NCBI GenBank assembly: GCA_951406725.2
Contig: OX597835.1
Location: 48,360,001-48,424,000 of the forward strand
Length of the DNA: 64,000 bases
Reading direction: 5' to 3'
Source: Octopus vulgaris
Taxonomy: Eukaryota
Shown here one piece after another: positions 31,980-37,800 of the stretch. Within the stretch, counting starts at the first letter, position 1. Each line of letters begins with the position of its first letter. The translations under genes were made by a program, and so were the position numbers. The notes under the pieces are model-generated. The model saw nothing but the letters and a program-made list of their open reading frames with translations, did not search any database and had not been told where the DNA came from.

Positions 31980-32662
31980 TGTGTGTATGTGCGTACTAGA
32001 AACAAGCCTTCATCGTTGAAATGTTGAAAGCAAAATACAATGTCATGTACAAACAAATTGAACATGAGAAAATCCTTCATAGTTTTACTGTTCTTATACA
32101 CAAATTATAAATTCACATTTATATCAATAATAATTGCTCCACTAGTCTTTTTGAGTAAACGCCTAAATGACAATCTGGATAAGTTAGAGTTTTCTGAAAA
32201 AGAAATCAACAAACTGTCAGTGGCAGTGTTCCAGTATGGCCACAGTCATAGGGTTGAAACGTATTAAGAAGTAAACTAAGTCGCGCGTTACAAATACGAA
32301 CTCTATTTGAAGCGTGTTCGCCAGTTGATAGGTTTTCTTGAGAACTGCAGCTTCTTCAGCACTAACGAAGCGCGCCAATTATTATTGATAGAAACGTGAT
32401 TTTATAATCTAGATATGGAATCTGCTTTATCTGAAGCAGTTGCCCGAAGTTATCCTCTTCCAGTTTTGATTTTAGAAGAGGTATTCACATCATTCACATA
32501 TGAGTGAATGCATATGTATTTTTATGCATGTATAGATGTATACAGGTGTGTGTGTGTGTGTGTAAACATATATATGCTATGTATGATCAATAAGTATCCG
32601 GACTGTTGCCAAACTAACGACATTAAAGCACGCAGAGTAAAGCCTCTTGGTACAGACTGACC

Positions 32663-32748
32663 ATATGGCGTAGTGGTTAAGAACGCGGGCTACTAACCCC
32701 AAGATTCCGAGTTCGATTCCAAGCAGTGATCTGAACAACAACAACAAC

Positions 32749-32803
<55 letters not shown>

Positions 32804-32984
32804 TCGAAAAATATCATAGGAATGGGAACCCAGGTTCGAAATTTCCCCAAGATACATGAAGAAGGTTGGAGGGTATATCAGCCGAAATGTTGTGTTGACA
32901 ACAAACGAAATGAGGACAGATATACTTTGAATTTAAATAATGTAAATAATGCACATAATTCCTCATCTCTTAAATAAAGGACTG
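32663..32984 (+). mobile_element. tRNA-headed SINE with internal (AAT)n and hammerhead-bearing 3' tail (copy 1)
   Basis: A-box TGGCGTAGTGG (32666), anticodon-like arm GGG-CTACTAA-CCC, B-box GAGTTCGATTCC (32709), (AAC/AAT)n 32734-32802, decayed HHR 32851-32896. Colinear with 35209-36220. Confidence 0.85.
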
Positions 32985-33037
32985 AACACGCTCTCTCTAT
33001 ATATATAAGTGGAGTAAGAAGACACACGAAAAGGAAA

Positions 33038-33086
33038 AGTGTCGCTGAAGAGGTCACAGATGTGTGACAAAAGATTTCCGGACACT
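33038..33086 (+). ncRNA. decayed hammerhead-like motif
   Basis: AGUGUCG-CUGAAGA-GGUCACA(GAUG)UGUGAC-AAAA-GAUUUC-CGGACACU; stems I and II are present but CGAAA is mutated. Confidence 0.4.
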
Positions 33087-34022
33087 AGCCATGAGTTAAA
33101 ATAATAAAATAAGAATAGTAACAAACGAGAGAAGAATATTTGTATAGTATTCTTGTTTCTGCCTGTCTCTGTCTCTCTTGTGTTCTCTTGTGGGTTCGAG
33201 GTCGTTGTGAATTCTTGGCAGGGAAGATGAGCCTACCTCATGGCAGGAAACACTGATGAGAGCAGCGGCATCAAACTCCCTCATTCACTAAATGCCACAT
33301 ATCAGAAAAGGTTTCAGATAATAATGGAGTGGCACAGTCAATGGTGGTGCCCCAGCATGAGCGCTGCTTCAAAGCTGAAACACTCCAAAGAATTAAAGAA
33401 ACAAAGAATACACACACACACACATATACATATATATATATACACGTATATATATATATATATACATACAGACACTATATATATAAATATATAAAATATA
33501 CATACATATATATATTTAAAGTAAACATAACTGGTAACACCACCCCAACCACCACCATCCCCAGCACATAACTAACCGTAACACTATCCTGGAACCACAT
33601 TAGCTACCTCCTACCATACCCCTCAACCTAGTGACCTCTACCGTACATATCCCATACAACGCCACCGCCACTCACACCCCCTTCTTACTCTTTTCTAACC
33701 GACTTGCCCTTAATTTTCTCTAAAATAATCATTTGACCTACAATTCGTCGTTATTGTTTCTTCGTTTTGTTTTTATTTCATTTTGGTAATTAGAATAATC
33801 TATATTTTCTATCGAAACCAGACCTGTAGTAAAACCATTTAAACACTCAGTGTGTGTGCGTGTGTGTGTGTGTGTGTATGTGTGTGTGTGTGTGTGTGTG
33901 TGTACGCATGTTTGTGTGTATGTATGTATATTCTGATATGTGTATGAAACATTAGTAATTCATACACGCGAATTCAAGAACTCAAGCATTCATATGCATA
34001 TGTGAATATGTGTGTATACGTA

Positions 34023-34087
<65 letters not shown>

Positions 34088-34094
34088 GTTTGTC

Positions 34095-34134
<40 letters not shown>

Positions 34135-35136
34135 CATATAGATGTACCTATCTTGTCCGTATATATATACATATATACAAACGTAAATATATGTGTATCC
34201 ATATATATTATGTATACATATATATATATATATACACACACATATACACACACACATACAGATGTATATATCTTGTTATTGTTGTTGTTGATCTTTTTCT
34301 TCTTCACACATGCTTTTGTATTTTTATATACATTTTTTGTTATATTTCTCCGGTCTATTTTTTTTCTTTTTGTATATTTGTAAGAAAAATTGTTTTGTTA
34401 TTTAAGCAACCAGTAAAACATACATTTTTTAGTTTGAAAACCGTTACTTGAAGTTCGAAACACATATCAGAGTAACTCACTGTAAAAATTTTTATTAAGA
34501 TTAAAATAAAAATTGTCAACCCAAAAGGCCAACAACATGAAATACGAAAACAAATGAGTTAAATACGCAAATAATGAGACAAAAAAAGGACACGTAATAA
34601 CCCTTCATCAGTTGTGTGCTATCAATCTACTCTCCATTTCAAGCAATGAACGACAATATGAGTCTTCGAAAACAGTGGCTCGCATGAATACCAAAATAAA
34701 AGTTTGGATTTATGGGAGGGGGGGGGTTAAATTTGGGAACAAAAACAGGACAGTGGGGACATACAAGGAAACCGAACGAAAACATACATGGAGGGTCGTT
34801 AGTCCAGAACGAGAGGAAAATAGCAAACGCTGAAAGAAATATTTTCTTTGAAAAGAGAAAAAAGAGAGAGAGAGAGAGATAGGGGACGTCCAGTCCTTTG
34901 AACGCCTGTGCAAGGAAGAAAGATGGTCACGGGAGGAAAAGAAAGATGGACGATTGTCGCATGTGAGCAACGAGAGAGAGAAAAAGAGAAAGAGGAGAAG
35001 AGAGAGTCAGATAGAAAACAGTGTATATATATATATATATATATATATATGAATATACGGATATACAGTGTCACTGTGTGTATATACATATATACATGTA
35101 TGTGAATATAATACATATACTTGTACATATATATAT

Positions 35137-35177
<41 letters not shown>

Positions 35178-35296
35178 TATATATATATGAATATAGTTAT
35201 ATTTTCTACAGTTCTATATTTAAGATATGAGGAATTATTTACATTATTTGCATTATTTACATTTGACGTATTTTTGTCCTCATCTTGTTTGTTGTT

Positions 35297-35342
35297 AACA
35301 CAACGTTTCGGCTGAAATACCCTCCAGCCTTCATCAGGTGTC
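35297..35342 (-). ncRNA. minimal type-I hammerhead ribozyme, intact core
   Basis: GACAC-CUGAUGA-A-GGCUG(GAGGGUAUUU)CAGCC-GAAA-CG-UU-GUGUU: 5-bp stems I and II, palindromic ACGU stem III, GUU triplet. Confidence 0.8.
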
Positions 35343-35390
35343 TTGGGGAAAATTTAGAACCTGGGTTCTCATTCCTAAGGTATATTTTGA

Positions 35391-35459
<69 letters not shown>

Positions 35460-35490
35460 CATCATCATCATTATTATTATTATTATTATT

Positions 35491-35984
35491 GAGTGAGAGA
35501 GCAGTGCATGCCATCAAAGTGACACTGGGGTAAAATTTACGAAGCCCAATATACCCATCATGACTACCCGTCTGATAAAGGTACATCAGGCACATGCATC
35601 ACAACCATATGTGCGCGACATGGTGATCTCATATCAAGATAAACAGCACATGACCTTGCAGGTGGGGCCCAGTTAGAATTTTCTTCAGGTTGAGTAGCCC
35701 ATCCCGCTCAAAAGGTCCCTGAATAAGGGTTGTTTAAGGATGTTGAAAGAACCACCCATGTTTCCAGTGGTGAATTATTCAAACTCCAAAGAATCCCTCT
35801 CAACACATGGCTATGATGCTCCCCCACTACTTCTGCTCGTGATCAGAGATGCGCATATCGTCAGCCACTAAGGGACATGCTCAACTGGTTAAGGTCAAAC
35901 AACTGACAAGCAAATCTGTGGTATTGAGCAGAATATTTGCTGTAGCCCATCTTTTATACCAAGAACTGGTTAAGGTCAAACAAC

Positions 35985-35985
<1 letters not shown>
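35491..35985. mobile_element. ~495-bp non-coding interspersed element inserted in (AAT)n
   Basis: Complex, higher-GC block bounded by (ATT)n on both sides within HHR-SINE copy 2. AACTGGTTAAGGTCAAACAACT is duplicated at 35883 and 35964. Confidence 0.6.
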
Positions 35986-36073
<88 letters not shown>

Positions 36074-36232
36074 GTTTGACTTTTGCTTTATATTTGTACA
36101 AGTTGGCTCCAAGTCTCACCCAGAGACTATTATCATTATTATCATTATCCAGGTCACTGCCTGGGATTGAACTCAGTATCTTGAGGTTAGTAGTCAGCGC
36201 TCTTAACCACTACGCCATTTGTCGAGAGATAG

Positions 36233-37025: not shown

Positions 37026-37800
37026 GGTGGCGGCAGTGGGGGTGATGATGGTGGCGATGGCGGCGGTGATGGTGGCAGCGGTGGTGGTGGTGGTGGTGGT
37101 GGTGGTGGTGGTGGTAGTGTTGGTGGTGGTGGTGGTGGTGGTAGCGGTGTAGCGGTGCCAGCAGCGGTGGTGGTGGTGGTGGTGGCGATGATGGTGGTGG
37201 TAGTAGCCTGACGGCGAAAGTGGTGGCGGTGGTGGTAGCGGTGGCAGCGGTGGCGGTGGTGGTGGTAGCGGTGGTTGTGATGGTGGCGGTGGCGGTGGAG
37301 GTGGTGATGACGGCGGCGATGGTGGTGGTGATGGTGGTGGCGGTGGTGGTGGTAGCGGTGGTTGTGGTGGTGGTGGTGGCGGTGGTGGTGGTGGTGGTGT
37401 TGGTGGTTGCGGTGGTGGTGGTGTTGGTGGTGGTGGTAGCGGTGGTGGTGGTGGTGGCGGTGGCGGTGGAGGTGGTGATGACGGTGGCGATGGTGGTGGT
37501 GATGGTGGTGACGGTGGTGGTGGTAGCGGTGGTTGTGGTGGTGGTGGTGGCGGTGGTGGTGGTGGTGGCGGTGGTGGTGGTGGTGGTGGCGGTGGTTGTG
37601 GTGGTGGTGGTTGGGGTAGCGGTGCCAGCGGCGGCGGTGGTGGTGGCGGCGATGATGGTGGTGGTAGTAGCCGTGACGGCGAAGGTGGTGGCAGCGGTGG
37701 CGGTGGCGGTGGTGGTAGCGGTGGCAGCGGTGGCGGTGGTGGTGGTAGCGGTGGTTGTGGTGGTGGCAGAGGTTGTGGTGGCGGTGGCAGTGGCGGTTGT
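37026..37800. repeat. degenerate (GGT)n array with higher-order internal duplications
   Basis: GGCGGTGGCGGTGGAGGTGGTGATGACGG recurs about 170 bp apart; 37150-37280 is duplicated at ~37615-37760. Confidence 0.9.

Follow-up and report, generated by a model that had tools for sequence, protein, structure and literature searches.

Two hammerhead-bearing repeats with a tRNA-derived head in Octopus vulgaris are solo pseudo-LTRs of a Penelope-type retroelement, probably transcribed by RNA polymerase III

A 64,000-nt stretch of the Octopus vulgaris genome (assembly GCA_951406725.2, contig OX597835.1, positions 48,360,001 to 48,424,000), referred to as the window, carries two copies of a tRNA-like head, an (AAT)n linker and a tail with a minimal hammerhead ribozyme. 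Analysis of the relatives of these copies in the 2.8-Gb genome that carries the window (G000, to which all genome-wide counts refer) showed that head, (AAT)n and tail together are the pseudo-long terminal repeat (pLTR) of an autonomous Penelope-like element (PLE) of the Penelope/Poseidon type, and not an independent short interspersed nuclear element (SINE). The two window copies are solo pLTRs of this element, with a template RNA that RNA polymerase III (Pol III) probably makes from the A and B boxes of the head. The original prediction had proposed a SINE parasitising Penelope-like machinery through its tail, or a Pol III-driven retrozyme whose ribozyme defines the RNA end.

The parent element was reached from the sequence upstream of the head. 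Sequence shared upstream of a few heads was used as query and returned 30 loci, in which it was the 3' end of a PLE open reading frame (ORF). The head stood behind this 118-nt sequence in all 30 loci picked by it, and about 1 kb downstream in 20 of 30 loci picked by their reverse transcriptase (RT). At loci picked by the N-terminus, the head-(AAT)n-tail module preceded the ORF start, and the tail continued unbroken into the ORF. The majority consensus (2,648 nt) formed a single stop-free frame of 838 aa, with the ATG 22 nt into the tail and the stop about 30 nt ahead of the head. Non-coding sequence in the unit is thus limited to a stretch of about 30 nt, the head, the (AAT)n linker and 22 nt. 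Direct pLTRs including the ORF start, in a partial tandem, were present at loci L261, L265, L277, and L278. The autonomous PLE that the original prediction suggested looking for thus exists, and the module is not a tail-borrowing SINE, since it is the terminal repeat of an autonomous element and its tail codes for the start of that element's ORF. Of the features of SINE2 elements, the unit has the tRNA-derived head with A and B boxes; it is not a non-autonomous unit that shares only a 3' tail or poly(A) with a long interspersed nuclear element (LINE).

Frames of real copies matched the RT profile PF00078 (RVT_1; E 2.4e-10). In the homolog search with these frames, 47 of 51 matches were RT-bearing PLE-type proteins, plus 2 weak ones, and the PLE proteins were 660-1,040 aa long. 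The homolog P0001 had the same hammerhead-encoded N-terminus. The C-terminus matched the Anolis protein P0014, for which we infer the label 'Poseidon', across the YxIPCSC/IAxH region (E 7e-18); the C-terminal GIY-YIG domain was assigned through this alignment, the Pfam GIY-YIG profile giving no match to the decayed frames. In a tree that held no named reference clades, the family grouped with 15 homologs including P0014, was sister to P0001, and stood apart from two other PLE families of G000 (support 100/100). These results showed that the repeat belongs to a real, abundant and decayed Penelope-type family. A separate partner PLE sought with PF01541 was rejected: only other families (young 781-aa ORFs) were returned, and their pLTRs were unlike the tail. 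At loci L131-L140 (e.g. L131:2745-5087) lies a PLE family of young age with two ORFs, in which many 781-codon frames are intact; its pLTR hammerhead carries the U3-A8 variant of the core, and the spacing from hammerhead to end, with a one-sided tail, equals that in the tRNA-headed family. Other tRNA-headed repeats near sampled loci (L055 and L170) were unrelated to the tRNA-headed PLE.

The exact hammerhead 22-mer occurred 7,569 times in G000 and the head 22-mer 4,356 times (the head pattern holds two degenerate letters), and the reversed controls of both gave 0. As 15 of 41 sampled arms carried the exact hammerhead 22-mer, G000 was estimated to hold about 2×10^4 arms. The tail was found in 3 of 40 random 10-kb regions. 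Position-picked heads were the first 30 exact matches on contig C1, and position-picked hammerheads the first 30 matches; the tail lay downstream of 27 of the 30 heads, and a head lay upstream on the same arm in 20 of the 30 hammerheads, so that the co-occurrence of head and tail at dispersed loci was borne out. Copies had a median identity of 91.6% to the consensus (n=42). The hammerhead was intact in the family consensus, as the original prediction required, and its core was intact in 71 of 208 copies. The head aligned end to end with tRNAs of G000, which argues for its tRNA origin; the best match, a provisional isotype, was Arg(TCT) (z 7.8) among the Arg, Cys, Ala, Thr, Ser, Lys and Glu genes compared. 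The head is only about 60% like the best tRNA, yet its A and B boxes are perfect.

The 5' ends of the copies were concentrated at the head. Among the 30 position-picked heads, 24 began at -7 to +2 of tRNA +1 (24 of 28 after a local triplicate was merged), although the inverted partner arm can give the look of an end at -7; truncation at the rate seen in the ORF predicts about 4% of copies ending in this interval. The remaining 6 heads, three of them local duplicates, extended 26-920 nt into the ORF end. A 22-mer located 40 nt upstream of the head occurred 927 times, 4.7 times more rarely than the head 22-mer, and the 22-mer spanning the junction of pLTR and ORF occurred 100 times. ORF fragments were joined to the head exactly at -6 at L422, L434/L435, and L448, and the ORF-bearing copies L270 and L274 began at the head. 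Judged from sequence, transcription may start at this pile-up, 13 nt ahead of the A box. At L422 (about 1655-1675, oriented), the ORF fragment is separated from the -6 start of the head by some 12 consecutive A, as though RT had switched to a truncated RNA with a poly(A) tail.

The sense strand of the 2,648-nt consensus contained no run of four or more T, the Pol III terminator, and 30 runs of four or more A. The absence of TTTT had P=0.028 under synonymous permutation, 0.0035 with Phe codons redrawn and 0.008 under base shuffling, and a TTTT allele was nowhere common behind the consensus, its maximum at any position being 7 of 57 copies. Real long copies of the family had 0.5 TTTT/kb; for other PLE families in G000 the figure was 1.0-4.7/kb over nine ORF stretches (average about 3/kb), and one LINE stretch had 0.6. 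In 80 foreign PLE spans from metagenome contigs the median was 3.6 TTTT/kb, and none of the 18 spans of at least 2 kb had zero. Together, the A and B boxes, the 5' pile-up and the lack of TTTT favor Pol III over a Pol II-type pLTR promoter. Of the records in which the element was found, none was listed as RNA. Two raw RNA runs (related species label) covered the element in both mate orientations, at a depth that tracked the DNA copy number, and showed an end pile-up only at one place of 5 molecules; fragmented 150-nt libraries cannot show RNA ends, and this evidence is neutral. No A/B-box match was found within up to 700 nt behind the ORF span in the 80 metagenome PLE loci, where many contigs end. 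At L357 (about 2513-2570), a stretch with tRNA-like A/B boxes stands 484 nt ahead of the part of a foreign PLE that was matched, and is probably a separate SINE.

The 3' ends of 313 arms were bimodal, with 144 at unit positions 138-165 and 148 at 178-198. Counted from the ribozyme cut, these 292 ends form two sites, one about 50-70 nt and the other about 90-105 nt downstream, and only 6 of the 313 were near the cut. The ribozyme cut does not set the ends of the copies, contrary to the retrozyme proposal. Of 89 distinct head-to-head arm pairs, 83 combined one long and one short 3' end, as did 25 of 27 among position-picked loci. Target site duplications (TSDs) of at least 10 bp were found in 56 of the 83 long-short pairs, against 2.4% of 410 shuffled pairs, and were about 12 bp long; the absence of an obvious TSD noted earlier holds for the window copies, but not for the family. 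In 15 of the 83 pairs, the long arm was cut inside the tail while the short arm had a full head, and the reverse was seen in 7. A single folded-back cDNA cannot yield these 15 pairs; therefore the RNA was copied twice. The inverted pLTR, the one-sided tail and the TSD are known PLE traits, as described in the available parts of PMC3846280 and PMC8557442; the near-obligate pairing of long and short ends and the 15 pairs with a truncated long arm and a full-headed short arm are new. According to the part of PMC11167929 available, the Anolis element PAc nicks and extends both strands, and its RT starts at two internal sites, which suggests by analogy one start per strand in the octopus family. 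The proposal that Penelope machinery does the copying was right, and the insertions carry Penelope hallmarks.

Non-CpG variants were shared 3.7 times more often by the arms of one locus than by arms from different loci (39 in 6,727 sites, against at most 0.0032 per site over 200 shuffles). Both arms thus usually came from one source copy, a measure that does not separate one RNA from two, nor from later gene conversion. A reading of AC/GT junctions as mismatch repair was dropped, as the junctions show which arm kept the 5' end. The mini-tandems L434 and L435, 1 Mb apart, had one internal-deletion junction and private variants in common and form a non-autonomous lineage. A minority of self-propagating non-autonomous derivatives therefore exists, and to this extent the earlier idea of a self-propagating non-autonomous unit stands. 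At L432 and L423, mini-tandem units repeatedly ended at unit positions 266-280, adjoining the first TTT runs of the ORF, and these ends could reflect premature termination in a source copy.

A fuller model, moderately favored and based on sequence patterns, is that of an autonomous coding retrotransposon transcribed end to end by Pol III. The element would have captured a tRNA promoter, purged TTTT from its 2.5-kb ORF, and shed SINE-sized 5' copies because RT starts internally, so that a LINE-like element and its 'SINE' are contained in one unit; the scars would be two RNA-templated primings, one per target strand. The unit runs from the tRNA-derived head through (AAT)n to the 838-codon RT/GIY-YIG ORF, which begins just ahead of the hammerhead. 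Pol III would start at a G six bases before tRNA +1 and, meeting no terminator in the ORF, continue into the following pLTR. Both target strands may be nicked about 12 bp apart by the RT/endonuclease, and each strand may have its own internal site of cDNA start (about ORF nt 120-140 for one and 165 for the other); the two cDNAs would grow inward and join by microhomology. RT starts near the RNA 5' end would give thousands of SINE-sized copies (solo pLTRs such as both window copies), and starts in the downstream pLTR would give ORF-bearing, mostly 5'-truncated copies. Translation might proceed either from uncapped Pol III RNA or from Pol II read-through.

Several observations weigh against transcription by Pol III and against the wider model. 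The strictest null for the TTTT absence was only modestly significant (P=0.028), two shorter foreign PLE spans also had zero TTTT, and 3 of the 80 were at or below 0.5/kb. The 838-aa protein is poor in Phe (2.4%), and 5 of 47 homologs were as low. ARAGORN and Rfam did not call the head a tRNA (nor was the hammerhead called), and the head no longer folds as a tRNA. The upstream head was kept in few ORF-bearing copies (about 4 informative ones of 30), and none of the copies retrieved had an intact ORF, the longest stop-free frames being about 375-379 aa. Uncapped Pol III RNA is a poor mRNA. A TATA-like TTTATAA, which includes the ORF stop, lies at -36 to -30, about 28 nt before the inferred start, and fits Pol II too. 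It is compatible with an explanation that we regard as unlikely, though the strongest of the rivals: in the same PLE, a TATA-driven Pol II promoter, or a stop of RT at a small hairpin before the head, would set the 5' end, and the tRNA head would be a passenger, for example an old SINE that became fixed in the pLTR. The promoters known for PLEs are Pol II-like (PMC2377424, PMC8557442, and PMC3846280, each as far as its available text goes): the internal promoter of Penelope is LINE-like (PMC2377424), and a TATA/initiator promoter in the pLTR was proposed for Adineta Pen2a, with 5' palindromes in other pLTRs (PMC3846280). However, a Pol II promoter leaves unexplained both why TTTT is missing from the sense strand alone and why the A and B boxes are perfect in a head that is only about 60% like the best tRNA, and a 4-bp hairpin would be unlikely to halt about 85% of cDNAs.

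Less likely still is a reading in which the short copies form a tRNA SINE of their own that propagates itself and parasitises the PLE, the autonomous element having its own Pol II route. Short copies outnumber the pLTR-ORF junctions about 40-75 fold, and the internally deleted mini-tandems, with the junction and private variants of L434/L435, indicate that at least one non-autonomous master spread. The head, however, belongs to the autonomous unit at both ends, and the ORF-bearing copies showed no alternative head or promoter. According to the available part of PMC11167929, PAc requires ORF sequence that lies past the sites where its RT starts (first 172 nt); solo copies would be without such sequence. 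A Pol III-driven retrozyme similar to Sm-alpha, with RNA ends defined by the ribozyme, is very improbable and largely refuted by the distribution of ends. The consensus hammerhead is intact, and the 5' truncation points were weakly enriched at the cut: positions 90-98 contained 13 of 69, with 6.8 expected (P=0.017, the interval being chosen post hoc), a hint that cleaved RNA was sometimes copied. Against this stand the few 3' ends near the cut, the dispersed copies in place of tandem arrays, the position of the ribozyme within an ORF, and, in the part of PMC11167929 available, the dispensability of cleavage for insertion by PAc in vitro.

Both window copies were confirmed at the places predicted from the sequence. 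The tRNA-derived head of copy 1, the 5' part of the pLTR, lies at 32662-32738 (+; 96% to consensus), with the A box at 32666-32676 and the B box at 32711-32720. It is followed by an (AAC/AAT)n spacer (32734-32803) and by the tail (32800-32984), which is the 22-nt leader plus the first approximately 163 nt of the ORF, with the ATG at 32822 and a long 3' end. The minimal type-I hammerhead of copy 1 (32851-32896) has lost C3 of its core and has one stem-III base mutated. The head of copy 2 lies at 36145-36221 (-; 87% to consensus), with the A box at 36217-36207 and the B box at 36172-36163. The A and B boxes of both heads fit the consensus motifs. The tail of copy 2 (35207-35394, -; 94.7% to consensus) comprises the leader and the first approximately 165 nt of the ORF, with the ATG at 35372-35370 and a long 3' end. 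Its intact minimal hammerhead (35297-35342, -) lies inside the ORF (codons PDE...PKRCV) and has a CUGAUGA core, an 8-bp stem II and a palindromic, loop-less stem III; the cut is predicted between 35302 and 35301, and a fold with stems I and II was obtained (z -2.8). A loop-less palindromic stem III marks the minimal, dimer-forming kind of hammerhead in the text available of PMC4209133. The heads of the two copies (32662-32738 and 36221-36145) were 84.7% identical and the tails (32800-32984 and 35394-35207) 84.4% identical. An origin from one local duplication was rejected: the copies are separate convergent insertions, with tails 88.6% and 94.7% identical to the consensus. No TSD and, as predicted, no poly(A) was visible at either copy, and no remainder of the ORF beyond the tails was found within the window. 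The copies are solo, long-ended pLTRs with no visible inverted partner.

The (AAT)n linker is present in both copies, but that of copy 2 also holds two nested repeats that are foreign to the pLTR unit. On the minus strand, one (AAT)n array (35985-36071) and a second one preceding the tail (35393-35490) flank the first of these (35491-35985), a piece of about 495 bp whose parent is about 560 bp when whole. This parent repeat sits in (AAT)n arrays across the genome and occurred in 7 of 40 random 10-kb regions; at L038, L045, L049, L086, and L089 it had a fixed 5' end and lay always in (AAT)n arrays, in one orientation. The second nested repeat (36071-36127, -) is a 57-bp 3' end of another LINE (kin L081:7316-7640), which lands in (AAT)n; the end of the L081 LINE ORF resembles R4/Dong C-termini. 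Microsatellites are very abundant throughout the window (178 TRF rows), and a 750-bp degenerate (GTG)n array lies at 37036-37787.

Comparison with known systems was limited to the available parts of the cited sources. The Penelope/Poseidon elements described there (Anolis PAc, PMC11167929; Adineta Pen2a, PMC3846280; D. virilis Penelope, PMC2377424) also have a single ORF of about 840 aa with RT and C-terminal GIY-YIG, a pLTR that includes the ORF start, an inverted 5' copy, an optional tail of 30-40 nt and a short TSD. In PAc the hammerhead likewise overlaps the ORF start (PMC11167929), and in the octopus element the tRNA head stands at the expected place of the promoter. Unlike these elements, with their Pol II-like promoters, the unit has a tRNA-derived A/B-box head and no Pol III terminators. 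Schistosoma Sm-alpha and Sj-alpha also combine a Pol III-type promoter with a hammerhead in a short, high-copy repeat, but their ribozyme frees monomers from tandem transcripts and no attached ORF is described in the text available (PMC6765202, PMC2770079); the ends of the tRNA-headed PLE are set by RT start sites, and its module is part of an autonomous ORF element. TRIMp3 elements (Cassandra, Helenus, Ajax) carry a small-RNA-derived Pol III promoter in their terminal repeat, but are non-autonomous LTR elements with primer-binding site and polypurine tract and a TSD of 4-5 bp, and their autonomous partners are argued to require Pol II (PMC10886601). The autonomous PLE ORF, the TSD of about 12 bp and the inverted arms set the octopus family outside TRIMp3. 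Non-LTR retrozymes (10.64898/2026.07.22.740005) and MRC1 (PMC8557442) are likewise short non-coding products related to PLE pLTRs; the former differ in forming tandem arrays of hammerhead units, and no tRNA head is described in the text available. With its dispersed copies and 6 of 313 3' ends near the cut, the family belongs neither to these retrozymes nor to Sm-alpha.

A literature search (full text, mostly title-level listings) found no tRNA-headed PLE and no Pol III-transcribed autonomous retrotransposon, although Repbase, Dfam, SINEBase or the repeat library of PMC13282606 may hold the consensus under another label. In its available part, PMC13282606 gives repeat class totals only. Pol III has been held to serve only short non-coding mobile elements; in the available text of PMC10886601 and PMC5786205, autonomous partners use Pol II and SINEs cannot encode protein. 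The surprising part of the present reading, which we consider the best and a likely one, is the transcription of a whole coding unit by Pol III. If true, an ORF of 2.5 kb that lacks terminators and follows a tRNA promoter would contradict this rule, would be an uncommon arrangement in an element coding for its own enzyme, and would raise directly the question of how a coding RNA made by Pol III is translated. It would also offer a route to the origin of SINEs that needs no tail-borrowing, and it points to PLE terminal repeats among the repeats annotated as 'SINEs'. The thousands of scars left by this family make the open problem of PLE integration, with its inverted arms and one-sided tail, testable.

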